Position numbers and translations under genes: made by a program
Sequence record: OQ680139.1
DNA: 49,857 bases
Origin: Escherichia phage PH1062
Strand: one strand, 5' to 3'
Shown here: one piece after another, positions 21,866-47,939 of the stretch
Numbering within the stretch: position 1 is the first letter of the stretch
Layout of the letters: every line of letters starts with the position of its first letter
Notes under the pieces: generated by a model
Seen by the model: the letters and a program-made list of their open reading frames with translations, nothing else
Databases searched by the model: none
What the model was told of the DNA's origin: nothing

Positions 21866-21895
21866 TTCTGCTTCCTCGTTCGTTTCGATGGGGTA

Positions 21896-21940
21896 ACTAT
21901 ACCGCTACCCCGATTCTGAGTTTTAACAAAAAGTGCTATC
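21896..21940 (-). promoter_or_regulatory. Family promoter A: 20 bp element, 19 bp spacer, TATAGT
   Basis: Sense strand AATAGCACTTTTTGTTAAAA; -10 sits in the loop of inverted repeat GGGGTA/TACCCC; followed by CCCATCGAAACGAA. Confidence 0.55.
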
Positions 21941-22117
21941 GCCGGTGATTTCGTGCATTCTTTTTCAACACCAACCATATTTTAAAACTGAAGATTTCAG
22001 GTTTGGTGAATCGTCGCTTCCCGTACTGTCGGCAAAGGCGGCGAACTCGTCGCTTATCCATCCGAAGGTCAGTAATTATCTTTTCTGATTTGATTAGCTT
22101 CATGACTAGTCCCCTTC

Positions 22118-22264
22118 GTTTTCGTCAAACTGTTGATTGTTGATCTGTTTAATTACTTCCCTCATAACTTCTGGCCGATCTAACTGGCCGTATCGAATTT
22201 TCTTTATAGAAATCGCCTCTTTAAGCTCTGCTGCTTGCTTGTCTGACAGGTTGATAGTAATCAT
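22118..22264 (-). CDS. Small hypothetical protein (48 aa; below ORF-track cutoff)
   Basis: My translation MITINLSDKQAAELKEAISIKK...; GAGAGGAAAGCAGAATG RBS-start ~30 nt after promoter B -10. Confidence 0.4.
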
Positions 22265-22293
22265 TCTGCTTTCCTCTCGCTTGGTGTGAACTA

Positions 22294-22339
22294 ACTATAA
22301 CAAAACCCGCCGGAGCGGGTTTAGCAATTCGTGCTATTT
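22294..22339 (-). promoter_or_regulatory. Family promoter B: element, hairpin spacer, TATAGT
   Basis: AAATAGCACGAATTGCTAAA; spacer holds CCCGC-tccg-GCGGG plus TTTT; element overlaps the TAA stop of 22338..22955. Confidence 0.55.
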
Positions 22340-22955
22340 ACCAAGGAATATCATCGGCCCATTCGTCGATTGCTGGTCGGATACCGCAGGCGCGAACCAC
22401 TGCCATGACGCCGCCGTCAATATCACCATTCACCAGATGCACGTCATGCTCGTTATATTTCTTGTAATCAGGAAAATGCGATTCCTTGATGCGTATGTAA
22501 TCACGGCTATCTCCCGCGAAGTTCTTGCCATCCATGAATAGGCGGACCAGGGTAACATCGTGACCATCTTCAACGAGTCGAATCACTTCATCGGGGAATC
22601 CGCCATCAGTGCAAACAAAACAGAATCCTTCATCACACAGACGGATATGTTCGCTCATCAGCTTACCGAACTGCTGGTTGCCAAAAAGCGGCTTTACCAC
22701 TGTTTCGCTAATCCAGATCATGAACTCACGGCAGGTCTTTCCACCAAGAAAGCTCTGGGGCTGCTCTTTCTGATCGCGGTCGTCGTATGCAGTGATGAAC
22801 TTTGAGAAGGCCCTGGCCCCAAGGATGGATGCGGCAATCTCAAACATCGGACGCTTGAAGCTGGTAGGGATGCAGTTGTAATCCGCTGCGAGCGCGTTGC
22901 CGATCGTGTCTTTACCAACCGAGGCTGGACCGTTGAGAATGATAATTTTTGACAT
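22338..22955 (-). CDS. P-loop kinase, dNMP kinase / polynucleotide kinase-like
   Basis: 205 aa; N-terminal ILNGPASVGKDT Walker A with the GKDT signature. Confidence 0.5.
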   Translation of the reverse strand: MSKIIILNGPASVGKDTIGNALAADYNCIPTSFKRPMFEIAASILGARAFSKFITAYDDRDQKEQPQSFLGGKTCREFMIWISETVVKPLFGNQQFGKLMSEHIRLCDEGFCFVCTDGGFPDEVIRLVEDGHDVTLVRLFMDGKNFAGDSRDYIRIKESHFPDYKKYNEHDVHLVNGDIDGGVMAVVRACGIRPAIDEWADDIPW

Positions 22956-23075
22956 TTGTGTTAATCCTCGTTATTGTGCCGCCATGCGTATTAAGCATGA
23001 GCTTTGCGTATTTTTAGTCTACATAGTGCAGGATAATATCAACGCCCCTGCTGCTGAATTTATGTTCGTATATCG

Positions 23076-23615
23076 TCACTTATGATGCACGCCATGCGAT
23101 CCGACGCCAGCATGTAGTTTATCGCCATAGTCACACACCTGGTATGTGGTGATGCCTAGGCTTCGAAAGTGAGCGATTACGTTAGGACTGTCATCAAATG
23201 CTGCCGTAATTTGATGCAAGCCAATATACCGCAAGAACTCCTCTTTGATGATGGTATCCTTTCGGTTATCACTTGCCTGGCGCATGACCATAACGTTATA
23301 TTTTGCTCCAGCATCATGAAGCCACTGAGTAGAAATCTCACACACCTCGTCTGAACGCCCTGTTAGAATAATGATGAACGCGCCGGAGTCAAACAGGCTA
23401 TTCATTACCTGAATAGTTGACTCGATAGGCTGATCATATTCTGAAAGTCGATTGAACTCAGACCATGACTCAGTAAGGTGCAAATCCTTTGTAGGCAACT
23501 TATGCAAACGATGCGATCCGTCAGATAAAGTTCCGTCGTAATCAAACAGGTAGACTGGCTTATTGATTGCGTCTGTGTTCAAGTGGTGCTTAATCATGGC
23601 GTACATCTGATTCAT
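23076..23615 (-). CDS. HAD-superfamily phosphatase (polynucleotide 3'-phosphatase / nucleotidase-like)
   Basis: 179 aa; LFDYDGTLSDG matches HAD motif I. Confidence 0.55.
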   Translation of the reverse strand: MNQMYAMIKHHLNTDAINKPVYLFDYDGTLSDGSHRLHKLPTKDLHLTESWSEFNRLSEYDQPIESTIQVMNSLFDSGAFIIILTGRSDEVCEISTQWLHDAGAKYNVMVMRQASDNRKDTIIKEEFLRYIGLHQITAAFDDSPNVIAHFRSLGITTYQVCDYGDKLHAGVGSHGVHHK

Positions 23616-23648
23616 TGGTTAACTTCCTTTCGTGTGGTTGATGTGTGG

Positions 23649-23693
23649 ATTATACCAGTCAGGATGAATCCCCTTTTAACAAAACGTGCTATT
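23649..23693 (-). promoter_or_regulatory. Family promoter C: element, 19 bp, TGgTATAAT
   Basis: AATAGCACGTTTTGTTAAAA; extended -10; element contains the TAG stop of 23689..24432. Confidence 0.55.
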
Positions 23694-24432
23694 TAATATA
23701 GAACTGAGCCACTACTCCGTCATAAATATTTAGGGCTGCGTATGCGTCAACTAACTCGCCATTAGCATTTATTACATTACCAACTTTCAATGCTCTCCAG
23801 CGGTAATCACCTTTTAGTCCAGAGAGGAAGGCATCTTGCGTGATGTGAATGACGCTCGGTTTATGACCTGTTTCACACTCGTCTACTTCATAATCATATT
23901 CTCCACCCTTGATGAAGCCATTCCCGCCAACGTAATAGCAAACCGCCACCTTGCGATCATTCTCTGACTCGCATTCGCCTACTGACATGGTAAGCGCCTT
24001 GCCTTCACCGAAATTGCTACCGAAAGTGAACTTGGCATCTTTCGTCAGGTAATCAAACTTTGCGCCATCATCCACGATGGTCTTGCCTGGGCCAGCCGCA
24101 AGCTCATTCACGAATGCATCGACAGTGCTGTGACACGGATCGCCATTGTACTTAGGCAAATCATTGAGCAATTGCTCACATGCTTCGTGCACCAGCTTAC
24201 CTACAGTTTCTTTGATTGCCTGCTCAACATGGTCAGCGATAATCGACGGTGCAGAAATTTGATGTTTTTGAGTCGATTCTAAGGCCTTTAAGCGTGCCTG
24301 TAAGGACTCGATTTCTTTTTTATGCATTGCGTAGGATACCCATGCTCCATCGTCGCAGGATTGCATTCCGACGCCGTGAATATTGACGCTGGTTGGCACT
24401 GACACAGGGATATAACGGTTGATGCTGTTCAT
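23689..24432 (-). CDS. Hypothetical protein
   Basis: 247 aa; no motif recognised. Confidence 0.6.
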   Translation of the reverse strand: MNSINRYIPVSVPTSVNIHGVGMQSCDDGAWVSYAMHKKEIESLQARLKALESTQKHQISAPSIIADHVEQAIKETVGKLVHEACEQLLNDLPKYNGDPCHSTVDAFVNELAAGPGKTIVDDGAKFDYLTKDAKFTFGSNFGEGKALTMSVGECESENDRKVAVCYYVGGNGFIKGGEYDYEVDECETGHKPSVIHITQDAFLSGLKGDYRWRALKVGNVINANGELVDAYAALNIYDGVVAQFYIK

Positions 24433-24473
24433 ATGTGATTCCTCAGTTGGTTTGTGTTCACTTGACAGGAGAC

Positions 24474-24518
24474 ACTATAGCTAATGTCTCCGAGCAAGTT
24501 TTAACAAAAAGTGCTATT
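24474..24518 (-). promoter_or_regulatory. Family promoter D: element, 19 bp, TATAGT
   Basis: AATAGCACTTTTTGTTAAAA; -10 in loop of GGAGACA/TGTCTCC; element encodes the last codons NSTFC and stop of 24501..24731. Confidence 0.55.
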
Positions 24519-24731
24519 CGATGAATCCGGCGCGAATTGCAGTTTCAAGTGTGCATACTGCTTAGCCGTCAGTGATGAGTGATAGGTAAAGATGCCAGCC
24601 TGGATACCCTTTACCAACTGATCCTGCGTAATGCCTGAGATATTAATAATCCCGTGTCCGCCACCAGTACGCAGGACCACATCGCCGACCGCACAAAATT
24701 CAATGCCTTTGCTGTTAGTGTAGACTTGCAT
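24501..24731 (-). CDS. Hypothetical protein
   Basis: 76 aa; good RBS AAGGGG. Confidence 0.5.
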   Translation of the reverse strand: MQVYTNSKGIEFCAVGDVVLRTGGGHGIINISGITQDQLVKGIQAGIFTYHSSLTAKQYAHLKLQFAPDSSNSTFC

Positions 24732-24918
24732 TTTTTAACCCCTTAACCTGACATGCTGTTCCTGTTCGGATGGCTGTTACTAAAAGAGTGAACACTGTAG
24801 CCTGGCTTATAGCCTTAAGCCATCGACCATGTTTTGGGTAGTAGACGTATCCAGTTCCACACGATACGGCGTACCATAAGCTACCTCGTCTGAAAACTAT
24901 TGGCTTCAACGGAATCAT
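24715..24918 (-). CDS. Hypothetical protein
   Basis: 67 aa ORF overlapping both neighbours at start/stop. Confidence 0.3.
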   Translation of the reverse strand: MIPLKPIVFRRGSLWYAVSCGTGYVYYPKHGRWLKAISQATVFTLLVTAIRTGTACQVKGLKNASLH

Positions 24919-25304
24919 AAGTAACCCTTCCCTACAGTTTCTCCAACTTCACGTGATGCCTTTAACTTGTTCCAGAAATCGAACGGGCCGACTGGCTCCC
25001 ATGCTTTCGGTTTGCCTGGCTCATTCCACCAACCGAGAACTGCCGCACTGCCGTAGCATGAATCCATCTGGCGACCGTCGCTGAAATAGCTTTTGAATAC
25101 GCGATTCAGTTCATCACCGCCAACCTTGATTGAGTTAGCTTGAGACTCAATTCCATATTTCTTCTCTAACTCCGTAGGCTCATCAATGAACCCCTCCACA
25201 ACGATCGGGTAAGAACCAGGATCGCGTGGGTTAGTCTCTTTCGGATGGAGCTTGAAGTATTCAAGCTCGGCATAGATGCTAGGGTTAAGTAAACGTACTT
25301 TCAT
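24915..25304 (-). CDS. Hypothetical protein
   Basis: 129 aa; ~43 nt after promoter E -10. Confidence 0.6.
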   Translation of the reverse strand: MKVRLLNPSIYAELEYFKLHPKETNPRDPGSYPIVVEGFIDEPTELEKKYGIESQANSIKVGGDELNRVFKSYFSDGRQMDSCYGSAAVLGWWNEPGKPKAWEPVGPFDFWNKLKASREVGETVGKGYL

Positions 25305-25347
25305 TTGTTAATCCTCTGTGATTGGTTATCTCTGCTTCAATAAGTCC

Positions 25348-25393
25348 ACTATATCAAATGGACTTGCGGAAGGTTTAGCAATTCGTGCTATTT
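25348..25393 (-). promoter_or_regulatory. Family promoter E: element, 20 bp, TATAGT
   Basis: AAATAGCACGAATTGCTAAA; -10 in loop of AAGTCCA/TGGACTT. Confidence 0.55.
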
Positions 25394-25482
25394 AACCACT
25401 ATCAGAAAGATAATCACCAGGAACAGAAGCACCCAGGATAACCCGACAAAAAGCAATTGCAGCACGTCAACTAATTTGAACT

Positions 25483-25701
25483 TCATAGCACTTCAACCTC
25501 ATCCTCTACAAAGGGCCAGTCGCCTGGTGCCATTCCTTTCTTGCTGAGCGCCGGAAGGAAGTCAGCGCCAACCATGTACATCGGACCCTCATCATCTTCT
25601 TCATATTTCCAGGCCATCGCCACTACTGGCAGCTTGCTTTTATCAACGCCCTGATACGGAGACTTGATAATGCGAATCTTAATCATTTCTTCATTGTTCA
25701 T
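25483..25701 (-). CDS. Hypothetical protein (start moved to internal Met with RBS)
   Basis: ORF track 25483..25800 overlaps the upstream paralog; Met at MNNEEMIKIRI has a GGAG RBS. Confidence 0.4.
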   Translation of the reverse strand: MNNEEMIKIRIIKSPYQGVDKSKLPVVAMAWKYEEDDEGPMYMVGADFLPALSKKGMAPGDWPFVEDEVEVL

Positions 25702-25897
25702 TGTGGCGCTCCATGTAGTCAGCCATTTTGATAAGGTGCTCACCCATTGCTCGGACAGTAGCCGGATCTTGCATTGGGAATGCTCCAGAGTCGTCGTCAA
25801 TAACGATTTCGACAGTGACGTTATCGCTATTGGTCATCGTGTCAATCCAGCAATCGTCATCGTCCATATCCTGGAAGCGCTTGCGATCGGTAATCAT
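25691..25897 (-). CDS. Small acidic protein, paralog family member 5 (most divergent)
   Basis: 68 aa; C-terminal PATVRAMGEHLIKMADYMERH aligns with the family motif. Confidence 0.5.
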   Translation of the reverse strand: MITDRKRFQDMDDDDCWIDTMTNSDNVTVEIVIDDDSGAFPMQDPATVRAMGEHLIKMADYMERHNEQ

Positions 25898-26118
25898 AAA
25901 ACCCCCTTCTCAGCGCGGTGGGCCGCTTCCATCAGGTGACACGCCAGTTGGCGCGCCTGGTCTGGCGTGTACAGCATGTAAGTGCTTGGGTATGATTCTT
26001 CGTGAGGATTGAAGTCAAGGCGCACCTTGAAAGTCACACGATCATTGCTGTGAATCTTCACAGCCTCAATTTCGGCCTGCTCGTTGTAGTCGTCTGCAAT
26101 GCGCACTTTAGTGCTCAT
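25894..26118 (-). CDS. Small acidic protein, paralog family member 4
   Basis: 74 aa; VRLDFNPHEESYPSTYMLYTPDQARQLACHLMEAAHRAE. Confidence 0.6.
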   Translation of the reverse strand: MSTKVRIADDYNEQAEIEAVKIHSNDRVTFKVRLDFNPHEESYPSTYMLYTPDQARQLACHLMEAAHRAEKGVL

Positions 26119-26157
26119 AAATTACCCCTTAGTTGATTGTTTCACTTCAATGAGTGC

Positions 26158-26202
26158 ACTATAGCAAATGCACTCACGGCAGTTTTAACAAAAAGTGCTA
26201 TT
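26158..26202 (-). promoter_or_regulatory. Family promoter F: element, 19 bp, TATAGT
   Basis: AATAGCACTTTTTGTTAAAA; -10 in loop of TGAGTGCA/TGCACTCA; element contains the TAG stop of 26198..26398. Confidence 0.55.
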
Positions 26203-26398
26203 CTATCACCTTCACTACCTTCTCTTTGCGATACGGTGCGCCGGACTTATGCAGCCAGTAGCGGGCCTGGGTAAGAGTACCCATTTTCTCAACCGTTACC
26301 CACCAGAACCAGGCGACTCGCTTCTGCACGGCGAACCATATGACCGGATCGCTGAAAGCTGTCTCGGTCCTGATCATCACTATGCGATACTTCTTCAT
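26198..26398 (-). CDS. Hypothetical protein
   Basis: 66 aa Trp-rich ORF, start/stop-coupled to neighbours. Confidence 0.4.
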   Translation of the reverse strand: MKKYRIVMIRTETAFSDPVIWFAVQKRVAWFWWVTVEKMGTLTQARYWLHKSGAPYRKEKVVKVIE

Positions 26399-26601
26399 GC
26401 CTGGTCTCTCCCTAGCTGGTTGTTGGCCTTGTTGGCTGCTGACACCAGTGCCGCCGCCATTGCCAGTGCCTGATCTGGAGTTAGAAATACCATCTCATCG
26501 CTAGCCAGGATTTCAACTTGGTCACTCTCCGCGCCTACCTCAAAGTAATCAGCGTAAAGGCATTTTACAAACACTGGAAAATTGATGTTTTTGTTGCTCA
26601 T
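26395..26601 (-). CDS. Small acidic protein, paralog family member 3
   Basis: 68 aa; VEILASDEMVFLTPDQALAMAAALVSAANKA. Confidence 0.55.
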   Translation of the reverse strand: MSNKNINFPVFVKCLYADYFEVGAESDQVEILASDEMVFLTPDQALAMAAALVSAANKANNQLGRDQA

Positions 26602-26708
26602 ATATCACCTCTAAATGGGCCTGTAACGGCCCGTTATTTTACTTACCCAATCGCCCATGCGACTTGAGATTATGTCGGTAGAGCTGCATTACGTGCTCAT
26701 TATGGTGA

Positions 26709-27139: not shown

Positions 27140-27163
27140 TTCCTCTTTGTTGTCGATATGGTA

Positions 27164-27208
27164 ATCATAGCTGACTACCCCACCCATTGTTTAACAATTC
27201 GTGCTATT
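27164..27208 (-). promoter_or_regulatory. Family promoter G: element, 20 bp, TATGAT
   Basis: AATAGCACGAATTGTTAAA variant. Confidence 0.5.
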
Positions 27209-27398: not shown

Positions 27399-27435
27399 TT
27401 TATCCACCAATCCAATTCTTGTTTTCGATGTTGTA

Positions 27436-27481
27436 ATTATACCGATTCCTTGCGGCACTGGTTTAGCAATTCGTGCTATTG
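27436..27481 (-). promoter_or_regulatory. Family promoter H: element, 20 bp, TATAAT
   Basis: AATAGCACGAATTGCTAAA; element encodes NSTNC and stop of 27463..27690. Confidence 0.55.
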
Positions 27482-27690: not shown

Positions 27691-28256
27691 TAATGCTCAC
27701 CATTCAGGAGAGATTTCGCTTTCCGGTAGAACTGGATGGCCTTCTCCACCTCATCGGCATCATAGCCATGAATCATGTCTGAGCTTGCCTGCAATTTGCT
27801 ATGAGATTTGCGCTCAACCGATCTCCATGAGTCGCACCACTTGTGAATGTCTCTCCCATACATGCCCACCAGGTATGGGTGTGCATATATCTTGTCACCA
27901 ATAAGGCAAATGATTCCAGCGTCCTGTAGTGATGGTAGGATGTTGTCAATCAGGTTATTCATTACTCCATTACGCTCGACGAACGGCTGGACCTTTCTGA
28001 TCGCCTCATATGTTGAGCGAACTCCCACAACGCCTTTTCCATTTATCGCTTGCTTCCAGATATTTTCAACCACGACGCATTGTTCACGATTTAGGTTTGC
28101 GCGACGCATAACTTCTACTTCGCACCAGTACTTTTGTGACTGTCGGTATCCGTTAGCATTGATTGCAATTCGTAGTGGTGGAAGCCCATCTTCCGTAGCA
28201 ATCTTCATAATCTGCTCATCTGTCAGCTTCTCTTCGTTAAAATCAAACATCCCCAT
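27690..28256 (-). CDS. Short paralog of the 30528..32111 NTPase (shares its N- and C-terminal domains, lacks the P-loop core)
   Basis: N-terminus MGMFDFNEEKLTDEQIMKIATEDGLPPLRIAINANGYRQSQ and segment INGKGVVGVRSTYEAIRKVQPF...LIGDKIYAHPYLVG match both ends of the 527 aa protein. Confidence 0.6.
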   Translation of the reverse strand: MGMFDFNEEKLTDEQIMKIATEDGLPPLRIAINANGYRQSQKYWCEVEVMRRANLNREQCVVVENIWKQAINGKGVVGVRSTYEAIRKVQPFVERNGVMNNLIDNILPSLQDAGIICLIGDKIYAHPYLVGMYGRDIHKWCDSWRSVERKSHSKLQASSDMIHGYDADEVEKAIQFYRKAKSLLNGEH

Positions 28257-28777
28257 TATTTCGTCTCCCTAATCATTTCCTGGTACATTTTGATTGCCTT
28301 GATGGCTCCTGTAATCTCATCGCCTTCAAACTCAGTCACGGATGGCATCAGCTTGAGTATTTTGACCTTAAAGTCGCTCACGGCCTTCTCTGCAATCTGG
28401 CCGTTTGCCTTCACTCGCTTTCCTGTCTGGATTGCGCCATCAACCAAAGACAGATAAGCACAACGAACCTCTACGTCATCACCGAAATCACCATCCTTAA
28501 TTGAAAGTTTTGCACGAACGTTTGCCGCCTGTATCTCTGGCATCCTGGCTACCGTATTGGCGACATATGACGCCTTCAGCTTTGACATGCTGTATCTGCC
28601 ACCTACATCCAGATCCTCACGACTTATGCCTCCCATATCACTAGATGTGAGGCCGTAAACCTGGCGAGCTATTAGATGGATTGGGACGTGGTAGCTGCGG
28701 TTCTCGGACTTGAGCGCTTGCTCCGCCATGTAGCGGACGACATCGCCCAGGCTTACGTGTTGATTATGATTTGACAT
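28256..28777 (-). CDS. Hypothetical protein, first gene of the leftward operon
   Basis: 173 aa; first ORF downstream of the sigma70-like promoter at 28820-28848. Confidence 0.6.
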   Translation of the reverse strand: MSNHNQHVSLGDVVRYMAEQALKSENRSYHVPIHLIARQVYGLTSSDMGGISREDLDVGGRYSMSKLKASYVANTVARMPEIQAANVRAKLSIKDGDFGDDVEVRCAYLSLVDGAIQTGKRVKANGQIAEKAVSDFKVKILKLMPSVTEFEGDEITGAIKAIKMYQEMIRETK

Positions 28778-28819
28778 AGATATTACTCCTGATTGGTGGT
28801 CTTCGTTAAGATGGGTGCA

Positions 28820-29410: not shown

Positions 29411-29456
29411 GAATAGCACTTTTTGCTAAAGACATAAATCATCATTCTGGTAATAT
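29411..29456 (+). promoter_or_regulatory. Family promoter I (rightward): element, 20 bp, TAATAT
   Basis: GAATAGCACTTTTTGCTAAA on the plus strand; first rightward-oriented copy after the AT-rich region. Confidence 0.5.
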
Positions 29457-29642
29457 GTATCTCAAGGAAGCAGTGAAGCGAACGCCAAGTAGCTACTTCC
29501 CAGAAGTCGAATCGTCCAGATGAAAAATGCTGGCGAGTGTTGAGAAAGGGCACGTTGAGTCACTTCCGAACAGGTAAACTCCTAGACACCTTCTCCGGCA
29601 GCAAAGTCTGACCGGGTTCTTCGAAAAAGCAGTGAAGGTATT

Positions 29643-29688
29643 GAATAGCACGAAATGTTAAAACAGAAGTGAAGAAAGCAGGTATAGT
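29643..29688 (+). promoter_or_regulatory. Family promoter I2 (rightward): element, 20 bp, TATAGT
   Basis: GAATAGCACGAAATGTTAAAA; 126 nt upstream of 29815. Confidence 0.5.
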
Positions 29689-29814
29689 CAGTACATAGAG
29701 AACGGGGTGGGAAGTAAAGAGCCGAACGGCCTCCTGATGGAACAGGATAACCACTAAAGCAGAGATGACATCAAAGCGAACCTCTAGCAAAGCACAGTAA
29801 ACCATTGACGAGAG

Positions 29815-30039
29815 ATGAAAATGAACCAGGATCTTAATAAAATTGCTTTCAACAATACCATCGCTGACATTGCTGCCAAGGTAGATCTATCCCGCAATCC
29901 CGTTAAGCAGATCGCTTCTGAGTGTGAGTTCTTCGCATCGCAGATTGAAGGTGACGAATACAAGAGAGTGTTTGCAGCCCTAAGTAAATGCAAAACACGC
30001 AAAGCAATGAGTATAATCATCAATAGCACGAATTGCTAA
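29815..30039 (+). CDS. Hypothetical protein
   Basis: 74 aa ending ...NSTNC, the last five codons being the family element. Confidence 0.5.
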   Translation: MKMNQDLNKIAFNNTIADIAAKVDLSRNPVKQIASECEFFASQIEGDEYKRVFAALSKCKTRKAMSIIINSTNC

Positions 30040-30066
30040 AGCCCTTCGGGGCTTTTCCTGTATATT
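30022..30066 (+). promoter_or_regulatory. Family promoter J (rightward): element, terminator-like hairpin spacer, TATATT
   Basis: AATAGCACGAATTGCTAAA; spacer GCCC-ttcg-GGGC plus TTTT; followed by CATCCCATCGAAACGAA; 36 nt to ATG 30103. Confidence 0.55.
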
Positions 30067-30102
30067 CATCCCATCGAAACGAAACACAAAAAGGCAAACA
30101 AA

Positions 30103-30456
30103 ATGACTACTACTATTACTAGAAACTGGATTAGCAACGAAAATGTACTCTATAAAGCTCGCGTTAAAAATGGCGTAGAGCAAATCAAGAAAGATGGAAA
30201 ATGGATTAACCTTGAAGAGCGCGGCAAGTACATCAAGACAAAGACCATTTACTGCACAAAGGTTAATCATCGCTCATCCATTCGTAAGTACTTCACTGAA
30301 GGGAAGCGATATCAAGTGGATCTCCATGCTGGACTTGGGCAGCGCGCTGGATACATTTACGATAAGGAGGGCAGCGCATGGCAGCTATATCGTGACGAAG
30401 ATGTTGGGTTTGTATCACTGTGTGGAACTTATCGCTGGGAAGCTCAGTACAAATAA
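30103..30456 (+). CDS. Hypothetical protein
   Basis: 117 aa. Confidence 0.6.
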   Translation: MTTTITRNWISNENVLYKARVKNGVEQIKKDGKWINLEERGKYIKTKTIYCTKVNHRSSIRKYFTEGKRYQVDLHAGLGQRAGYIYDKEGSAWQLYRDEDVGFVSLCGTYRWEAQYK

Positions 30457-32111: not shown

Positions 32112-32114
32112 ATT

Positions 32115-34048: not shown

Positions 34049-34094
34049 AATATAGCGCCTTCCGGCGCTATAGTGTTAGGCAATTCGTGCTATC
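34049..34094 (-). promoter_or_regulatory. Family promoter K: element variant, 21 bp hairpin spacer, TATATT
   Basis: GATAGCACGAATTGCCTAA; spacer is inverted repeat TATAGCGCC-ggaa-GGCGCTATA; element overlaps the TGA stop of 34093..35235. Confidence 0.45.
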
Positions 34095-37064: not shown

Positions 37065-37337
37065 TTATTTAACCTCGGTAACTTTGCAGTTATTCACAGC
37101 GACGAACCCGCCGACGCTAACTTTTACCTGACTTTCAGTCACGTTATAAACTGCCTTGCCTAAGAAAGTTTGCAGTTCATAGTGATCGCCTTCACGCTCA
37201 ATAACAACGCCCTTATCTGAAACAATCTGTGACTTGGTTACTGTGAAGGATTCCTTGCCGCAATCGTAAAACTTGGTATCTTCTGCGCAACCTGCCATTG
37301 CCACAACTGCCAGTAAAGCGATGATTGACTTTTTCAT
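37065..37337 (-). CDS. Putative lipoprotein
   Basis: 90 aa; signal peptide MKKSIIALLAVVAMAGC with lipobox. Confidence 0.55.
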   Translation of the reverse strand: MKKSIIALLAVVAMAGCAEDTKFYDCGKESFTVTKSQIVSDKGVVIEREGDHYELQTFLGKAVYNVTESQVKVSVGGFVAVNNCKVTEVK

Positions 37338-37376
37338 TTTGATTTCCTTGGTTGGTTACTTCGTTTCGATGAAGTG

Positions 37377-37421
37377 ATAATACATCACCTCACCGATTCG
37401 TCTTTAGCAATTCGTGCTATT
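37377..37421 (-). promoter_or_regulatory. Family promoter M: element, 20 bp, TATTAT
   Basis: AATAGCACGAATTGCTAAA encodes NSTNC and stop of 37404..37832; followed by CTTCATCGAAACGAAGT. Confidence 0.55.
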
Positions 37422-39931: not shown

Positions 39932-39968
39932 AGTATTAAATGCCTTTCATGTTCGTTCGATTGACGTT

Positions 39969-40012
39969 ATAATAACAACCATCGAAACCAATGTTTAACA
40001 AAAAGTGCTATT
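39969..40012 (-). promoter_or_regulatory. Family promoter N: element, 18 bp, TATTAT, upstream of helicase operon
   Basis: AATAGCACTTTTTGTTAAAC; lies in the divergent region between helicase and 40024..40497. Confidence 0.5.
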
Positions 40013-40023
40013 GAGGTGATAAA

Positions 40024-40497
40024 ATGAATGCAACTGATAAGCGTACTCTTAACGGTAACAACGGAACTATCCGCACGGAAGATAAGAAGCAGCGTAAGCG
40101 ACCGTCAGGTTACTATGTTCTCAAGGATGAAGTAAAGGCCGGATTAAGAGCGCGACTTGATATTGTATTTGAGTTCTACGGCAGCAAGGCGAATATGGCG
40201 AAGCAATTAAAAGTTACTCGCCAGGCGGTCGAAGAATGGTTTAAGCGTGGCATGATGTCGGCACGCGGCGCTCAACTGGCGCACAACAGATATAAGCGAA
40301 CTGGCGAAGGGTTCCGCGCTACATTCTGCCGACCGGATTTGCAATTCGACGGCAACGGTAAACCGCTGACACTGCGTTGCAAAAAGCGTCACATGCTGCG
40401 CGTCGTCACCGAGGCTGAACTAGCCACTAAGCCTGAATGTCGCTCATGGCGAAAAATTAAAGCAGCAAACGAAGCAGCACGAAAAGCTAAAGAATGA
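40024..40497 (+). CDS. Cro/YdaS-like helix-turn-helix DNA-binding protein (putative regulator)
   Basis: 157 aa; YGSKANMAKQLKVTRQAVEEWFKRGMMSARGAQLAH resembles Cro/YdaS HTH; basic termini. Confidence 0.5.
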   Translation: MNATDKRTLNGNNGTIRTEDKKQRKRPSGYYVLKDEVKAGLRARLDIVFEFYGSKANMAKQLKVTRQAVEEWFKRGMMSARGAQLAHNRYKRTGEGFRATFCRPDLQFDGNGKPLTLRCKKRHMLRVVTEAELATKPECRSWRKIKAANEAARKAKE

Positions 40498-42068: not shown

Positions 42069-42076
42069 TTGCCCAG

Positions 42077-42105: not shown

Positions 42106-42110
42106 CTATG

Positions 42111-42130
42111 TTTAGCAATTCGTGCTATTT
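42111..42130 (-). promoter_or_regulatory. Family element in reverse orientation at the tail fibre promoter (operator-like position)
   Basis: TTTAGCAATTCGTGCTATTT on the plus strand between two plus-strand genes; ends 19 nt before ATG 42149. Confidence 0.45.
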
Positions 42131-42148
42131 ACTTAAGGAGTTTATATT

Positions 42149-44758
42149 ATGGCTTTATACAGACGCGGTACAGCATCAATGGATGCAGACGGAACGGTTC
42201 ACGGAACCGATACAAAATGGAACGATCAGCTTGCTCTGATTCGCGTAGGTGCAACTATCGTATTCCTGGAGCAACCAATTAAGCTGGCGGTAATCAGCGA
42301 TATTGTGAGCGACACAGAGCTAAAGGCTATCTCTACGGATGGTCAGACTGCCGCTGACGGAAAGTATGTAATCTTGCTTAACGATTCATTGACCGTTAAC
42401 GGGCTTGCGCAAAACGTTGCTGAGACGCTTCGGTACTACCAGAGCAAAGAGACCGAGATTGCTGGGGCAATGGATATCATTGCGAGTCTGGATATGGATA
42501 ACCTTAACCGTATCATTGAGGAAATTAAGGCGAACAAATCAGCCGCAGAATCTGCGCAGAATCAAGCGGAGCTTGCTCGCGACGCATCCGCTGCAAACCG
42601 TGATGCCGCAAGTCAATTTGCAACATCGGCAGAGCAAAGCAAGAATGCAGCAAAGACCAGTGAGACGAACGCCAACAACGCAAAGACCGACGCAGAGACA
42701 GCTAAATCACAGGCAGTAACTGCTAAAGACCAGGCTAAAGTATTTCGTGACGAGGCAGAGCAACTCGCAAATGGTGCCGATGCATCAAATAAGGTTGATA
42801 AAGTTGGGTCCGCTATCAACACCCCAACCAGCGTTGCTGACATGCTAAAAAGATTGCGAGACACGATAAAGGGTGGATTCTGGCGAGTTGATGATATAAG
42901 TCAGTTTCCATCCGGGCAAATGGCCCCGTTCAGATACGGTTCAGGGATTTGCGGCGGCGCTGGTGACACATTTTTTGCGTTTAACGTTGACTGGCAGTCC
43001 TCTAGCGTAAAGGTTTTCTCGGGAAACAATGACGCTATCAACGGAGAGTCTGGATATATTAGCTCTATTGAGCTGGCTAAACTTGGTACAAATGGGGACT
43101 TGGCGATCGCGGACGGCGGGACGGGAGCATCTAACGACCAGGGGGCGCGCGCCAACCTTCAGGCGATGCACGAGCGTCAAGCACCGTTGTTAAGCGAAGA
43201 CCTTAACGTATTAAAAGGGGATAAGGCTGGATTTTATTACACTAACATAAGTGCGAACGCGACCACGGATAAAAACTACCCAGTAGGCAAGGCTGGATGC
43301 CTTCTGGTCCAGAAAACTGGAGCTAACGACCCAAAAAGCTGCGTACAGACCTACACCGAATATAACAGCGGGCGAAGATTCATGCGGTGGATCTCGAATG
43401 GCGCGACAGACACCTGGTCGAACTGGTACGAACTGTATAACTCTGGGTCGTCGCCGACTTTTAATGGTAAAGTGACGGTGCCGCAGGTTGCGGTTGGCAC
43501 GGCTACTCTGCGGCCGGTAACTCCCGGAGAAGGAAGCGGAGACGGGGTTGTTTGGGAATCCAGCAACGCCACGGAGGCGAGTTTTGGCATTGCGAATGTT
43601 GGCGGCGGGTCTGCGGTGTTCCACAACTATTCAAAACCAGCAAACGGGTCTGGCGTGGCTACCGGAGTGCTTATTGGTGGGTACGGGTCGCGCCCGTGGA
43701 CTGGTACTACATATACGGACCACTCAAACGTGTCGCAGCACTTCCTCATGGACGGGACCGCTTCGGATACTAACCACGGCGGCTGGTTTAGGTTGCTAAC
43801 AACCCCATTGAATAAGACCAATGCAGATCGTAGGCAAACATTCGCGACCAGCAACAACGGCGACCTTTATATAGGTTTCGATGTACCTATGGGGCTTTAT
43901 AAGATAACGCAGGAAAGTTACAACGGATTGGAAATATTAAACGGTCGCGGTCTTAAACAAGTAAATAACACAGCTAATGAAATAGCCTTAATCACCCCAC
44001 GAAACGGGGCAACAGCTAATATAAATTTCAGAGGTGTAGCTTTTAATGGCTCAATGACCGGAGTTAAAGGTGCCACTCAGCAGGGAGACAACTTGTGGCT
44101 GTCTTTTGCAGGGCATGACGGTGTAAGATTCACGGGTGCCGCTGCCGGTATGCGGATTCAGGCGTCGACTGGATGGTCAGCCACAAACACGCAATGCGGA
44201 ATAACGTTTGCGACAACGAAAGCAGGGTCCACGCAGAGGGTGGATCGGTGGAGCATTACGAGCGACGGGTCGCTGTCCCCAGCTGCGGACAACGCATACC
44301 CGATCGGCAGTGCAGTCTCCCGTGTTAGTGCGGTCTACGCAGCAAACGGGGCCATACAGACCTCGGACGCAAGACTCAAGACCGAGGTTAGGGGTTTAAC
44401 AGAGGAGGAGATGGGCGCCGCTAAAGCAATCGCCCGCGAGTTTGGCTTTTTCCGGTGGCTTGAGAGAGTAGCCGAAGAGGGCGACGATGCGAGGCTCCAT
44501 GCAGGTATTACCGTGCAGAAAGTGATGGAAATCATGCGGTCTTACGGTCTGGACCCCTTGAAGTATGGATTCGTGTGTTACGACGAATGGGAGGAGACTT
44601 CAGAGGTTATCAGTGACCCCGATGATAATTCGAAGTCGACGATCAATATAACCCCCGCAGGCAATAGATATAGCTTGCGATATTCGGAACTAAACGTGTT
44701 TATCGCCAGAGGACTTGAGCAAAGAATCTCAGAACTGGAGGCTAAGTTAGCTGGTTGA
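42149..44758 (+). CDS. Side tail fibre with C-terminal intramolecular chaperone (peptidase S74) domain
   Basis: 869 aa; Ala-rich coiled-coil repeats; autoproteolysis-type motif SDARLK followed by HAGITVQKV...YSLRYSELNVFIARGLEQRISELEAKL. Confidence 0.75.
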   Translation: MALYRRGTASMDADGTVHGTDTKWNDQLALIRVGATIVFLEQPIKLAVISDIVSDTELKAISTDGQTAADGKYVILLNDSLTVNGLAQNVAETLRYYQSKETEIAGAMDIIASLDMDNLNRIIEEIKANKSAAESAQNQAELARDASAANRDAASQFATSAEQSKNAAKTSETNANNAKTDAETAKSQAVTAKDQAKVFRDEAEQLANGADASNKVDKVGSAINTPTSVADMLKRLRDTIKGGFWRVDDISQFPSGQMAPFRYGSGICGGAGDTFFAFNVDWQSSSVKVFSGNNDAINGESGYISSIELAKLGTNGDLAIADGGTGASNDQGARANLQAMHERQAPLLSEDLNVLKGDKAGFYYTNISANATTDKNYPVGKAGCLLVQKTGANDPKSCVQTYTEYNSGRRFMRWISNGATDTWSNWYELYNSGSSPTFNGKVTVPQVAVGTATLRPVTPGEGSGDGVVWESSNATEASFGIANVGGGSAVFHNYSKPANGSGVATGVLIGGYGSRPWTGTTYTDHSNVSQHFLMDGTASDTNHGGWFRLLTTPLNKTNADRRQTFATSNNGDLYIGFDVPMGLYKITQESYNGLEILNGRGLKQVNNTANEIALITPRNGATANINFRGVAFNGSMTGVKGATQQGDNLWLSFAGHDGVRFTGAAAGMRIQASTGWSATNTQCGITFATTKAGSTQRVDRWSITSDGSLSPAADNAYPIGSAVSRVSAVYAANGAIQTSDARLKTEVRGLTEEEMGAAKAIAREFGFFRWLERVAEEGDDARLHAGITVQKVMEIMRSYGLDPLKYGFVCYDEWEETSEVISDPDDNSKSTINITPAGNRYSLRYSELNVFIARGLEQRISELEAKLAG

Positions 44759-45084
44759 GAATGCAAGGCCTGGTCTTTCTAAGGTTGGCGGGTACACTTA
44801 CACCCTGAAAAAAGACGGAATGCCTTACGCTGGTATTATCGCTCAGGAGTTTATGGATGTAGTGCCGTGAGCTGTTAGCTCATATGAGGATTACGCTGAG
44901 CTTCAAGGTCCGACACTTGACGGGAAGGAACTTATTGGTAAGCAACGATTCTTCCAGGTTGACTACGCGGCTATCGCAGCTTACGAGGTGCAGGTGTGTA
45001 AAGAGCAGGAGGAAGAGATTGTTTCCTTAAGGAATGACGTTGATGAATTGAAATTGATTGTAAAATCGTTGCTTGATAGCAAGT
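44751..45084 (+). pseudogene. Degraded second intramolecular-chaperone module downstream of the tail fibre gene
   Basis: +1 frame after the fibre stop reads ...GGYTYTLKKDGMPYAGIIAQEFMDVVP, in-frame TGA, then ...QRFFQVDYAAIAAYEVQVCKEQEEEIVSLRNDVDELKLIVKSLLDSK; no start codon. Confidence 0.55.
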
Positions 45085-45115
45085 AAAAGAAAGCCCCGCA
45101 ATGCGGGGCTTTTTG
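45085..45115. terminator. Bidirectional intrinsic terminator between tail fibre region and ssb
   Basis: AGCCCCGCA-a-TGCGGGGCT flanked by A/T runs on both strands. Confidence 0.7.
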
Positions 45116-45589
45116 TCAGAATGGAATATCATCGTCGAACTGATTTTGCTGCTGTGGTGACTGATTTGGTTGCTGATTCTGGCGTTGTTGCTTCTGTTTC
45201 TGAGGATGCTGTTGCTGCTGTCGTTGCTGGCCTTGATTCTGCTGCTGCGCAGACTCACGCTGGCTGAATTGAAGTTGAGGCCGGATCATTTCAGCAGTAA
45301 CGTAAACAGTCCCGTCATTACCTTGGCGAGAAGATAAGTGAAGTGTATCGGCAGAAATTGAAACAACATTCCCTTCCTGGAACGCCTCATCATACCACTG
45401 CATGACATTTTCTTTTGCGAAGAATGTAGCGCGGTAGTTACTGTAAACCGTCTCATCCTCGCCCTGCTGATTGCGAATCTTCATGCGTTCTGACAGTTCA
45501 ACGGCGTACATTTTCCAACGACCGTTGTTGTTGCTGCCTTCTTTGGTGTATGGCGCTTTGCGGATCTGACCAGTGATTACGTGTGGCAT
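45116..45589 (-). CDS. ssb: Single-stranded DNA-binding protein
   Basis: 157 aa; Gln-rich linker and acidic C-terminal tip DDDIPF. Confidence 0.85.
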   Translation of the reverse strand: MPHVITGQIRKAPYTKEGSNNNGRWKMYAVELSERMKIRNQQGEDETVYSNYRATFFAKENVMQWYDEAFQEGNVVSISADTLHLSSRQGNDGTVYVTAEMIRPQLQFSQRESAQQQNQGQQRQQQQHPQKQKQQRQNQQPNQSPQQQNQFDDDIPF

Positions 45590-45627
45590 TGTATTTTCCT
45601 TTTTGGATGGGGCAGAAGCCCCGTTAA

Positions 45628-46284
45628 TTAGAATTGTTCGATGGATTCAGATTGTACAGGTTCGGGCGGTGCATTTGCAACCTTGTCTTCAACCTTTTGA
45701 GTATCGGCCTTTTTCGCTGGCTGGAAACCGCGAGCGTTACCGATACTCAGTTCAGCCTTGCGCTTCTGCAAGTGGTCTTCTGCAATCTTCCATTCCGCCG
45801 CGCCAAGTGAACCTTTCGCGCTCTTATAGATAACCTGGAGGTCTTCCAGTTTTTCACAGTTGGCGATAAGTTTTTTGTAGTCCGCTGCCGTTCGCTTCGC
45901 AATTTCTGCATCGTCATCGCTCTGAGTGATTCCAAGCGCTGCGCACAATGCGTAACGGCGACCGTATGATGTTGTTGAGCCGTAAGCCTGGGCGCTAATC
46001 TTCTCGATCGGCATGTTGTACTGGAACGCAAGCCACTCACCGGAGCTGTGAAGGATGAGTGTTTCAATATGCATTACCTTTTCTGTTGACGTGTCCAGAT
46101 TTGACTGGATAACCATAAGGTCATGCTCTTTTAGTGCTGGCTCTACGGCCTCCAGAACGTCCGTCAGGTTTGAGTAATGGTTTTTCAGGTGAGTGTTGAA
46201 GCCTGATTTTTTTGCGATTGCAAACTGCTTTTTAGCTGCAATTAGAGCGGCTGAAACATTCGAAAACTTCTCTGATGTACGCAT
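45628..46284 (-). CDS. erf: Erf-family single-strand annealing protein
   Basis: 218 aa; N-terminal pattern typical of Erf as I recall it; adjacent to ssb and exonuclease. Confidence 0.6.
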   Translation of the reverse strand: MRTSEKFSNVSAALIAAKKQFAIAKKSGFNTHLKNHYSNLTDVLEAVEPALKEHDLMVIQSNLDTSTEKVMHIETLILHSSGEWLAFQYNMPIEKISAQAYGSTTSYGRRYALCAALGITQSDDDAEIAKRTAADYKKLIANCEKLEDLQVIYKSAKGSLGAAEWKIAEDHLQKRKAELSIGNARGFQPAKKADTQKVEDKVANAPPEPVQSESIEQF

Positions 46285-46321
46285 TATATATACCTTTGTT
46301 TACTTCGTTTGATTTACGGTG

Positions 46322-46365
46322 ATTATAGCAAATCACCGCATTCTTGTTTAGCAAAAAGTGCTACG
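46322..46365 (-). promoter_or_regulatory. Family promoter P: element, 19 bp, TATAAT
   Basis: CGTAGCACTTTTTGCTAAA variant; overlaps TAG stop of the exonuclease gene; followed by ATCAAACGAAGTAAAC. Confidence 0.5.
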
Positions 46366-47416
46366 CTTCCAGGATGTGCTTGAACTGCTTTTTAATCCAA
46401 TCAGGAGTCTCAAGCTCAATCTCTGGTTCGCCGTTGCTGTATGAAGGCCATACGTCATTCGCTTCGCACATTGAGAAAGTATGAATAACGCTCATGTACT
46501 GCGCACGACCAATCTTAAGCTGATCGCTACTCATGCGGTAAGCCATAGGAAAGTAAGGCTCTTTCTTCTCCTGGGCCAGCAAGCGCACAACCACAGGTCG
46601 CGTTTCCTCAAAGCATTTAACGAACAGGTCACGCTGCAATGCCATCTTGAGGTAATATCCAAGGTTGAACGCCAGGCGCGGGAACTCGGTCGGGTTGGCG
46701 CTCATTGTCGTTTTGTAATCAGTGATGACGACGATTTCAGGGTGAATCTCAGGATCGTAACCCATGCGCCGGATGGCTTCTGGATCATTAATGATGTCAA
46801 CATGGTCAAGTCGCACCTTGACTTTAACGCCACAGATTACGCCGAACAAAGAATACTCACGGAATGCCGTTTCGCTGTTCATGCAAGCGTTATGCTCAGG
46901 AATCATTTCAAGAACCTGGCGCATACTGACGCAAGCGTCGTAGTCTTCCGCCTTAACCAGTTCCACGCCATCTGCCCACGCCTGACATTGTGCGATCATA
47001 TCAATCAGCCACATGACGTTGAGGTCTTCGCCGCAATCAACCATCATCTTGATCAGTTCTGGATATTGCTTGCCGCTTGTACCAGTCAGGCCAAATGATT
47101 TTAATTTCGTTGCCAATGCCGCCTGGCTAGTGATTACGTTTTCAATCTCGCTATCTTTCGGTGCGCGGCGATACTTGCGTTCAAACAGTGCCTTACTCTC
47201 GAAATTGGTATGCGACTGCGTACCGAAGACAAGTGCCTTAGTCGTCGAGTTCATTTCAAACTTCCACGCCGCAGGGCAAGTACTGTGGATCTTGCTGAGT
47301 GACGATCCTGATACGTACTTGGCGGTCCATTCGTCTTTGCTGTGATAGAAATCGTTGCTCATTTCTTCTGACGTGAAATATTGAAAAAGTGGCTTAGTCA
47401 TCTCTTTAATCCTCAT
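46361..47416 (-). CDS. PD-(D/E)xK family exonuclease (RecE / lambda-Exo-like partner of Erf)
   Basis: 351 aa; IVVITDYKTT fits the D-x(n)-(D/E)-x-K core. Confidence 0.5.
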   Translation of the reverse strand: MRIKEMTKPLFQYFTSEEMSNDFYHSKDEWTAKYVSGSSLSKIHSTCPAAWKFEMNSTTKALVFGTQSHTNFESKALFERKYRRAPKDSEIENVITSQAALATKLKSFGLTGTSGKQYPELIKMMVDCGEDLNVMWLIDMIAQCQAWADGVELVKAEDYDACVSMRQVLEMIPEHNACMNSETAFREYSLFGVICGVKVKVRLDHVDIINDPEAIRRMGYDPEIHPEIVVITDYKTTMSANPTEFPRLAFNLGYYLKMALQRDLFVKCFEETRPVVVRLLAQEKKEPYFPMAYRMSSDQLKIGRAQYMSVIHTFSMCEANDVWPSYSNGEPEIELETPDWIKKQFKHILEA

Positions 47417-47434
47417 TTGTTGTTGATGTGGGTA

Positions 47435-47462
47435 ACTATACGCGCTTGGTTGCCTTAGTCAA
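47435..47462 (-). promoter_or_regulatory. Sigma70-like early promoter TTGACT-16-TATAGT (leftward)
   Basis: Hexamers just upstream of 47416; GTGGTTACATGT abuts the -35. Confidence 0.5.
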
Positions 47463-47686
47463 GTGGTTACATGTAGATATTTGTAATCACGTGTATGCAA
47501 TGGCGTTAGTTACATAAAATGGCTATCCAGCCCAGCTATGGCTTGATGTAAACATCGTGTATATCGTGTATACCACTTTTCGCGGATGGTGCATTAGTGT
47601 ATGCGTGATTAGATACTGTATAAATATACATATTAGAAATTTATAAGCGGAATACTCTATAGAAGTAGTTACACGATATACACAGT

Positions 47687-47757
47687 AATATATATATAAT
47701 AATAATAAGAGTAAAAGGTTGATATATATAGATATTTTAATGTAACTAATGCGTAAA
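47687..47757. repeat. AT-rich conserved block, copy 2
   Basis: Same sub-motifs and order as copy 1 at 29069-29145. Confidence 0.7.
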
Positions 47758-47855
47758 TCTGCGTAACAGCGCGTATATCATTTTCAGCGGAAGAGATTGT
47801 ATACATCGAGTTACATCGGTTACGTGTATATCGTTGCATTTGCATACTTGACACC

Positions 47856-47900
47856 AAAAAGCACGAATTGCTAAAACTCAATTAATGGTTGGTGTATAGT
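47856..47900 (+). promoter_or_regulatory. Family promoter Q (rightward): element, 18 bp, TATAGT
   Basis: AAAAGCACGAATTGCTAAAA; followed by CACTCAATCGAAACGAA. Confidence 0.5.
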
Positions 47901-47939
47901 CACTCAATCGAAACGAAATTCACTTGCTAAGGACTCAAA

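Follow-up and report, generated by a model that had tools for sequence, protein, structure and literature searches.

A conserved 12-nucleotide motif at the predicted transcription start of a promoter family in Escherichia phage PH1062 and other T1-like phages

Genomic context and copies of the motif

The DNA analysed here, hereafter the window, is a stretch of 49,857 nucleotides (nt) from Escherichia phage PH1062 (sequence record OQ680139.1), and the element in question is the 12-mer CATCGAAACGAA, which follows the -10 hexamers of several predicted promoters. About 12 kb around the motif is ~90% identical to the Escherichia phages vB_EcoM-p111, P817, BUCT-XGG-1 and ESCO41. ESCO41 is classified in the family Drexlerviridae, genus Nouzillyvirus; because of this identity, the window was assigned to a T1-like siphophage of the same genus. 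The structural genes are on the minus strand up to ~21 kb, and beyond ~21 kb lie small early genes together with replication, recombination and lysis genes. The original prediction, made from the letters of the sequence, held that the 12-mer recurs directly after the -10 hexamers of promoters A, J, M and Q, with a near copy after promoter P and a plus-strand copy after a TATAAT, and that such conservation beyond the core promoter might mean a shared 5' leader function or an extended recognition sequence.

The window contains three exact copies and two one-mismatch copies of CATCGAAACGAA. These five matches compare with 0.39 expected at up to one mismatch, and none of 100 shuffled sequences reached five. 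Four of the five begin exactly 5 nt past the -10 hexamer of a promoter of one family, namely at A, J, M and Q as proposed, and would therefore span positions -1 to +11 of the predicted transcript. The four hexamers are TATAAT-like and lie 20 nt (19 nt for the copy at 47906) downstream of an upstream element with the sequence ATAGCAC-N3-TTGYTAAA.

The exact copy of promoter A is at 21879-21890 on the minus strand; the upstream element (21922-21939) and the -10 hexamer TATAGT (21896-21901) place the predicted +1 at the A of 21889, with a leader of 24 nt to the ATG of an open reading frame (ORF) of 70 amino acids (aa). Promoter J has its exact copy on the plus strand at 30072-30083, with the element at 30023-30040, the hexamer TATATT at 30061-30066, the predicted +1 at 30073 and a 30-nt leader to the ORF 30103-30456; its spacer holds a terminator-like hairpin, GCCCcttcGGGGC, followed by TTTT. 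The exact copy of promoter M (37360-37371, minus strand; element 37403-37420; TATTAT 37377-37382; predicted +1 37370) is preceded by a stem of 14 base pairs (bp) and -18.1 kcal/mol, which runs across the -10 hexamer and into CATCG, and its leader extends 33 nt to a 90-aa ORF (37065-37337, minus strand). Promoter Q carries the one-mismatch copy AATCGAAACGAA at 47906-47917 on the plus strand, behind an element that begins AAAGCAC (47858-47875, 19-nt spacing) and the hexamer TATAGT (47895-47900); the predicted +1 is 47907, and a phage lipoprotein gene (47940-48182) lies downstream.

The fifth copy is the plus-strand one, CATCGAAACCAA at 39980-39991, with one mismatch. It starts 6 nt past a TATAAT (39968-39973) that has no family upstream element, and this promoter serves a helix-turn-helix regulator gene (40024-40497; weak Cro/YdaS-like match). 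It stands back to back with a minus-strand family promoter and overlaps the spacer of the latter. The near copy after promoter P is also real: ATCAAACGAAG at 46303-46313 on the minus strand (element 46347-46364; TATAAT 46322-46327), within the context TATAAT-caccg-TAAATCAAACGAAG, is shifted 3 nt from the canonical register. Looking for the 12-mer at further -10-proximal sites, as had been advised, yielded degenerate copies in the window, a family consensus from 135 promoters and copies outside the Drexlerviridae. The copies in the window include a two-mismatch one at the canonical offset, CATCGAAAACAA (27419-27430, minus strand; element 27462-27479; TATAAT), a degenerate one, CAATCGAACGAAC (39951-39963, minus strand), at the family promoter of a 700-aa helicase gene (element 39994-40011; TATTAT), and another degenerate one behind the family promoter at 27206 on the minus strand. 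A further two-mismatch copy, CATCTTAACGAA (28802-28813, minus strand), lies 6 nt past a canonical, non-family TTGATA-17-TAGTAT promoter and upstream of a DUF7174 gene (28256-28777).

The back-to-back promoters at 39950-40023 use one AT-rich -10 segment, TTATAATAA, which gives TATAAT for the plus-strand promoter, in front of the regulator gene, and TATTAT for the minus-strand one, in front of the helicase gene. The upstream element of the helicase promoter sits within the 5' leader of the regulator gene. This arrangement could couple both promoters or serve autoregulation.

Small lipoprotein-type genes lie behind two of the four best motif-bearing promoters. The product of 47940-48182 (plus strand) gave a clear Pfam Phage_lipoprotein match (132 bits against a cutoff of 27), and for 37065-37337 (minus strand) a weak match to the lipobox model LPAM_1 (18.9 bits, under the cutoff of 20) suggests a lipoprotein; both may be Cor-like exclusion proteins. 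The other two promoters precede small genes that are unrelated, so the downstream genes form no evident class.

The promoter family

The upstream element occurs 15 times in the window at up to three mismatches, against 0.14 expected, and a looser element search with a -10 filter gave 17 family promoters. Their predicted +1 positions are 21889, 22287, 23642, 24467, 25341, 26151, 27157, 27429, 34042, 36056, 37370, 39962 and 46315 on the minus strand, and 29463, 29695, 30073 and 47907 on the plus strand. The family architecture consists of ATAGCAC-N3-TTGYTAAA (18 bp), a free spacer of ~20 nt and (T)G-n-TATAaT, and the same architecture is found 14-19 times each in ESCO41, p111, T1, Rtp, TLS, Klebsiella phage KP36 and Rogue1. 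A sample of 135 members was collected from eight Drexlerviridae genomes, the window included; column statistics were calculated from the 105 members with exactly 20-nt spacing.

The consensus of these 105 promoters is AAATAGCAC(T/G)WWTTGYTAAAAC, a free spacer, T.tGGTATAaT, tACCtC, and then A T c G A A A c g A A. In the -10 region, A-11 and T-7 are invariant (105/105) and T-12 is present in 95/105; of the extended -10 positions, G-14 is found in 82/105 and T-15 in 39/105, many members having TGn and others the G alone. This pattern (A-11, T-7, T-12, G-14) points to sigma-70 recognition of an extended -10. The spacer columns from -30 to -19 mostly hold 0.02-0.21 bit, and there is no conserved hexamer at -35. 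An A stands at the seventh position past the hexamer in 87/105 promoters, preceded by C or T in 96/105. The A of CATCG is the most likely +1, judging from this 7-nt distance, the pyrimidine at -1 with a purine at +1, and the start contexts of phage T7.

Three other readings of the family were ruled out. The TTGYTA/TTGCTA of the upstream element is too far from the hexamer (22 bp) to serve as a -35. Middle promoters of T4 carry a MotA box, (a/t)3TGCTTtA, centred near -30 and 11-13 bp upstream of the -10; in the present family TTGCTAAA/TTGTTAAA occupies -40 to -33 and ends 20 bp before the hexamer, so a MotA-dependent promoter was rejected. A promoter of a phage-encoded RNA polymerase was also rejected: the -10 signature is that of sigma-70, and no such polymerase gene is annotated in ESCO41, p111, T1 or Rtp or was seen in the window, which was checked through the ORF list and a Pfam scan of ten ORFs. 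Family promoters are not annotated at all in the T1, Rtp and ESCO41 records; the Rogue1 and KP36 records contain a handful of predicted sigma-70 promoters, whose positions were not compared with the family.

The upstream element spans -50 to -33 and contains the palindrome TAGCA-N5-TGCTA, centred near -42, which is a plausible site for a helix-turn-helix regulator. In the genome paper of phage Rtp, Wietzorrek and colleagues (2006) reportedly described ten conserved inverted repeats upstream of genes and proposed them as sites of Rtp52. The element, (T)AAATAGCAC-N3-TTGYTAAA, also holds TAG and TAA in two frames, often with a third TAA just before it (e.g. 22320-22337, 23675-23692, 27190-27207, 37403-37420 and 34076-34093, all minus strand). 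Upstream ORFs terminate just before it or at varied points inside it (e.g. at 22338, 23689, 27204 and 37404). It thus acts as a multi-frame stop module, as expected of a cassette that can be joined to any gene.

Among the structural genes there are copies of the element that lack the usual 20-nt distance to a -10: 16797-16814 (minus strand), followed 6 nt later by TATAAT and then a terminator hairpin; 12825-12842 (plus strand), on the strand opposite to the genes and adjoining a terminator; and 2915-2932 (minus strand). Moreover, the family promoters with predicted starts at 29463 and 29695 (regions 29413-29560 and 29645-29800, plus strand) are followed by no ORF with a ribosome-binding site. 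The sequences after them, beginning TCAAGGAAGCAGTGAAGCGAACGCC and CATAGAGAACGGGGTGGGAAGTAAAGAGCCGAACGGCC, have conserved counterparts on the minus strand of phage Rtp (at ~46159 and ~45918), and their transcripts are candidate small non-coding RNAs, with no Rfam match.

Conservation and register of the motif

Across -1 to +11 the 105 promoters agree on C A T c G A A A c g A A as their consensus; the information content of single positions ranges from 0.15 to 0.97 bit and is 0.8 bit at -1. The 12-mer is exact in 22 of the 135 promoters, has one mismatch in seven, and is present with up to three mismatches in 41. Each genome alone yields the same consensus, most strongly Rogue1, Rtp and the Nouzillyviruses and less so T1, TLS and KP36. 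All 41 copies with up to three mismatches lie at offset zero from the -10, whereas the distance from the predicted +1 to the ATG varies: of the 38 leaders in the motif class, 35 measure 22-34 nt, and the remaining three, where the next ORF is far downstream, measure 105-112 nt (leaders of 22-37 nt are found in most family members). The motif thus keeps its place relative to the promoter rather than to the start codon.

Among motif-bearing paralogues within one genome, the motif itself is 72-89% identical, by construction since the class was chosen on motif similarity; the spacer and downstream leader of the same promoters are 25-50% identical, which is the background level, and the discriminator 32-67%. 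With flanks at background identity, the motif is not a relic of recent duplication of whole promoters. At the orthologous promoter behind the VRR-NUC gene in seven genomes of six genera, CA.C..AACGA is invariant and the spacer is free. These comparisons bear out the proposal that conservation extends beyond the core promoter. The composition from +1 to +12 is 49% A and 14% T, and leaders of the motif class are nearly unstructured (mean minimum free energy, MFE, -0.69 kcal/mol; z = +0.72).

The motif outside the family

The IMG/VR database was scanned twice, once with the 12-mer set 5 nt past TANNNT and once with the 14-mer CATCGAAACGAAAC by itself. Of the 84 matches to the 12-mer with its TANNNT, only 10 had the Drexlerviridae upstream element; in the second scan, 52 of 80 matches had a TANNNT exactly 5 nt upstream, and about 17 of the 80 lay in G+C-rich, coding-like contexts, which were taken as chance background. 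The largest outside group consists of lambdoid prophages like phi80 and HK225. In phi80 (locus L130, 1469-1520), the annotated pL promoter has the -35 TTGACC and the -10 TTTAAT, then tactc, then CATCGAAACGAAACATCGAC. The 14-mer is identical to that of the T1-like family and stands at the same 5-nt distance from the -10; unlike the family, phi80 pL has canonical -35 and -10 boxes, CI operators and a leader of ~400 nt with nutL before the N gene, and no ATAGCAC element. Across about 50 phi80-like prophage contigs the leader is constant from the motif onward and the operator and promoter sequences upstream differ, which places a mosaic boundary at the transcription start of these prophages.

The motif also follows promoters of T4-like Straboviridae (KP15; CfP1, Miller and RB16; and a relative of Cronobacter phage S13), as well as textbook TTGACA-17-TATnAT promoters with a Shine-Dalgarno sequence and ATG on single contigs (e.g. 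L032, L056, L038, L016, L053 and L143). Because it follows promoters with such different upstream parts, from phi80 pL to canonical promoters, the motif is not a recognition extension specific to the T1 family, and this half of the original prediction is not supported. The other half, a shared 5' leader function, may still be right. It cannot be a role in translation tied to the start codon, given leaders of 22-34 nt with outliers of 105-112 nt and of ~400 nt in phi80, and the phi80 leader shows that a role tied to the ribosome-binding site is not the common denominator. The recurrence in unrelated enterobacterial phages points to a function that would involve the host, and recognition by a phage-specific factor is the less likely reason for the motif.

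The annotated starts of T7 A1 (C|ATCGAGAGG) and A3 (C|ATGAAACGACAG) offer a partial similarity that could be coincidence. A1 is identical to the motif in the first six positions and diverges after +5, and A3 has the GAAACGA core with one base missing; both differ from the family in having canonical -35 elements.

An operator at +1 to +12 would be another way to use a fixed sequence at this place. It might be bound by a phage regulator, such as the product of 40024-40497 (an orthologue of T1 gp23 and Rtp52), or by a host protein, and would switch a subset of promoters on or off. The motif is present in only about 30% of the family, as would suit a regulated subset; the non-family promoter of the regulator gene has its own one-mismatch copy, as in autoregulation; and TCG-N3-CGA forms a short dyad. 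The arms of this dyad, however, are just 3 bp long and 6 bp apart, unlike the sites of helix-turn-helix dimers, and the regulator is more plausibly assigned to the palindrome of the upstream element. The genes behind motif-bearing promoters are unrelated, and the motif also occurs in lambdoid and T4-like phages, where the regulator was not searched for. We therefore regard an operator as very improbable. An operator of the LacI/PurR/Cra type, for which GAAACG could be a half-site, was rejected separately since there is no matching second half.

Embedded stem-loops and cassette boundaries

The region from -34 to +6 of the 135 promoters folds more stably than shuffled sequences (mean MFE -10.8 kcal/mol; mean z -3.0; z < -2 in 68%). 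The 5' arm of the stem-loop lies at -31 to -16 and the 3' arm at -9 to -1, extending to +1 to +4 in about a third of cases. All 17 cassettes of the window have a stable stem-loop in the spacer or over the -10 and discriminator (e.g. 37366-37405, 26147-26186, 24463-24502 and 21885-21924, minus strand). The arm sequences are not conserved between promoters and show compensatory changes between orthologues (GTCCA/TGGAC vs GGCCA/TGGCC; GGTGAT/ATCACT vs GAGGTG/CACCTC). The sense strand is the more stable one in 103 promoters and the antisense strand in 30 (p = 2e-9), to which base composition may contribute; this bias fits an RNA structure in transcripts that read through from upstream, where the stem-loop is probably a terminator, an attenuator or a protector of 3' ends. 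A true terminator hairpin with a T run is found inside the spacer in only some members (e.g. 22336, 30024). GATG at -19 to -16 co-occurs with CATC at -1 to +3 (11/15 vs 34/120), so the first bases of the motif often close the stem. The motif class as such showed no association with hairpins that reach +1 to +4 (14/41 vs 34/94).

These structures bear on the view that the motif works at the RNA level, with the 5'-terminal AUCGAAACGAA as a specific leader element or as a processing site by the hairpin. It might be recognized by a host or phage factor, govern stability that depends on the 5' end through access of RppH or RNase E, or assist ribosome loading on short leaders; alternatively, it might be a cleavage context 3' of the promoter hairpin in read-through RNA, which would give processed and primary RNAs with one 5' end. 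Such a role would agree with a motif that keeps its distance from the predicted 5' end but not from the ATG, with the retention of the exact sequence in unrelated phages, with leaders that are unstructured and poor in U after the conserved U at +2, and with a hairpin that ends at -1 to +4 and is stabler on the sense strand. Ribosome loading cannot be general, however, given the distance between motif and first gene in phi80; an Rfam scan of the window at gathering thresholds gave zero matches; and 11 nt of unstructured RNA is a small target. Compared with known consensuses, the motif has no match to the Hfq A-R-N motif and matches the RNase E consensus only in part, at U +2. On balance an RNA-level signal appears rather unlikely. 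Two other RNA signals, boxA and the consensus for capping by nicotinamide adenine dinucleotide (NAD), do not fit; NAD capping needs a purine at -1, where the motif has C.

As a whole, the cassette fills the intergenic space between two ORFs: it begins at the stop codon of the first and reaches the Shine-Dalgarno sequence and ATG of the second. Where the window is homologous to p111 or ESCO41, the blocks of homology start or stop at -51/-52 and -30/-32 and, in one case each, at -19 and +6; by plain count about ten block ends fall within -52 to +6 of predicted starts. The block ends in the window are at 25393, 27423, 27448, 29433, 30022, 37421, 39994, 47856 and 47875. Small genes have been replaced or inserted between the blocks; for example, p111 has four extra cassette-flanked genes opposite 29.4-30.1 kb of the window. 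This suggests that recombination at the cassettes exchanges modules. The T4-like phages KP15 and CfP1 also have complete T1-type cassettes, with the upstream element ATAGCACTTTTTGTTAAA, 20 nt, GGTATAGT, TACCCC and ATCGAAAC; those of KP15 lie at ~10040-10090 and 10369-10425 of locus L087 (bases 1-12354), and those of CfP1 near 11500-11950 of locus L084. The regulatory cassette is thus common to two unrelated phage families. In the KP15 record such cassettes overlap terminators and carry the label 'putative middle promoter; discovered using MEME'. The spacer hairpin of promoter J, AAGCCCTTCGGGGCTTTT, matched generic terminators when used as a query and gave no set of orthologues; at the six loci that encode the 117-aa protein behind this promoter, the promoter is present at one.

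Comparable units, the promoter-early stem-loops (PeSLs), have been described in the T4-like phages RB49/phi1, T4/PST and KVP40/nt-1 (Arbiol et al. 2010, PMC2839356; Comeau et al. 2014, PMC4122927). Their stem-loop is mostly between the promoter boxes or over the -10, contains G-T pairs, acts as terminator or attenuator and marks recombination sites, and the cassettes are reported to form mini-circles. PeSLs and the T1-like cassettes are alike as intergenic units of ~100 bp that run from the stop codon of a small early gene to the next Shine-Dalgarno/ATG, combine a host-type promoter with a stem-loop with G-T pairs, and lie at mosaic boundaries. PeSLs have -35 and -10 boxes and an AT-rich upstream region, whereas the T1-like cassettes have no -35 and the 18-bp element at -50 to -33; the passages of the PeSL papers that were consulted name no conserved 12-mer at the start of the transcript. 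The T1-like unit is therefore a variant PeSL architecture rather than a plain member.

The motif might also be a patch of homology without a function of its own, spread and homogenised by recombination of mobile cassettes within genomes and between co-infecting phages. The block ends inside cassettes and the complete cassettes in KP15 and CfP1 are in line with this, and so is the excess of exact over one-mismatch copies, which fits copying; crossovers in PeSLs were mapped between the -10 and the ATG (PMC2839356). Nevertheless, with the spacer and discriminator at background identity, conversion tracts of ~12 nt would be needed. The motif also persists at orthologous promoters across genera that have otherwise diverged, and it is present at phi80 pL and at canonical promoters, sites that have nothing else in common with the cassette. 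A mere homology patch seems quite unlikely on these grounds.

Interpretation of the motif

The reading we favour, tentatively and at somewhat less than even confidence, is that selection has kept the motif because it would make initiation and promoter escape easier for the host polymerase, and perhaps also for the 5' end that it gives the RNA. CATCGAAACGAA would be the downstream module (-1 to +11) of a consensus early or middle promoter cassette of T1-like phages. The cassette would be read by the host sigma-70 RNA polymerase through the extended -10, with no -35 and with the conserved 18-bp element at -50 to -33, and transcription would start at the A of CATCG. The nascent RNA would then begin with an A-rich, U-poor and unstructured stretch, selected for start-site choice, efficient initial transcription and promoter escape, and perhaps for properties of the RNA 5' end. 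The CATC of the motif is often the end of the 3' arm of the promoter-embedded stem-loop, and the whole unit behaves like the mobile PeSL cassettes of T4-like phages.

Known systems provide some precedent. In T5 N25 and related promoters, a stretch just after +1 is reportedly important: Gentz and Bujard (1985) are named in this connection, Kammerer and colleagues (1986) are said to have found that the downstream region of T5 promoters affects strength, and Hsu and co-workers (2006) are credited with the finding that purine-rich initial transcribed sequences of N25 favour escape. There too the host polymerase transcribes phage promoters, and a purine-rich start is reported to favour escape. The N25 start ATAAATTTGAGAG differs from the motif, and the effect was measured for T5 promoters, whereas the present motif is known from sequence alone. 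Conservation across +1 is also seen in promoters of single-subunit phage RNA polymerases, such as T7 class III promoters, which are conserved to +6; the T1-like family differs in its sigma-70 type -10 and in relatives that have no annotated polymerase gene.

Several points weigh against a role in initiation and escape. About two thirds of the family promoters lack the motif. The distribution of mismatches is bimodal (22 exact against seven with one mismatch), whereas a generic A-rich, U-poor property would lead one to expect degenerate sequences. Together with the identical 12- to 14-mers in unrelated phages, this bimodality is better explained by sequence-specific recognition or horizontal copying than by a loose optimum. 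The motif lacks the base that RNA polymerase is known to contact specifically in this region, a G at +2 of the core recognition element. Moreover, no mapped 5' end in any T1-like phage was found in the literature, and the +1 is consequently inferred and the label 'initial transcribed sequence' geometric. The excess of exact copies and the recurrence in unrelated phages both hint at greater sequence specificity, and our confidence in the favoured reading was held down for this reason.

The specificity might be accommodated if CATCGAAACGAA(AC) were a sequence-specific 5'-terminal signal of early transcripts in T1-like, T4-like, phi80-like lambdoid and other enterobacterial phages, read by a host component and spread on mobile cassettes. 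We consider this doubtful. If true, the host component would be RNA polymerase during initial transcription or a factor that acts on the RNA 5' end, and the motif would be a distinct, so far undescribed promoter-proximal element rather than a loose compositional preference.

Significance

Conserved or important initial transcribed regions are already known from T5 N25, T7 A1 and the promoters of phage RNA polymerases, as are cassettes of promoter and stem-loop. Our search of the literature on Drexlerviridae and T1-like promoters found no description of this promoter family; nor did the literature found describe the 12-mer, its standing as a family-wide consensus in Drexlerviridae, or its presence at phi80 pL and in cassettes of T4-like phages. 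Promoter output is known to depend on the initial transcribed sequence, but natural examples with a conserved consensus are rare. In the present phage family, about a third of the promoters keep a 12-nt start in exact register, and this start recurs at promoters of unrelated coliphages. The motif is thus a concrete natural sequence with which the role of the first transcript bases in start-site choice, escape and RNA fate could be studied. For the Drexlerviridae, the family defines roughly 15-20 transcription units per genome, which is a gain for annotation, and it links the promoters of T1-like phages to the mobile promoter/stem-loop cassettes of T4-like phages.

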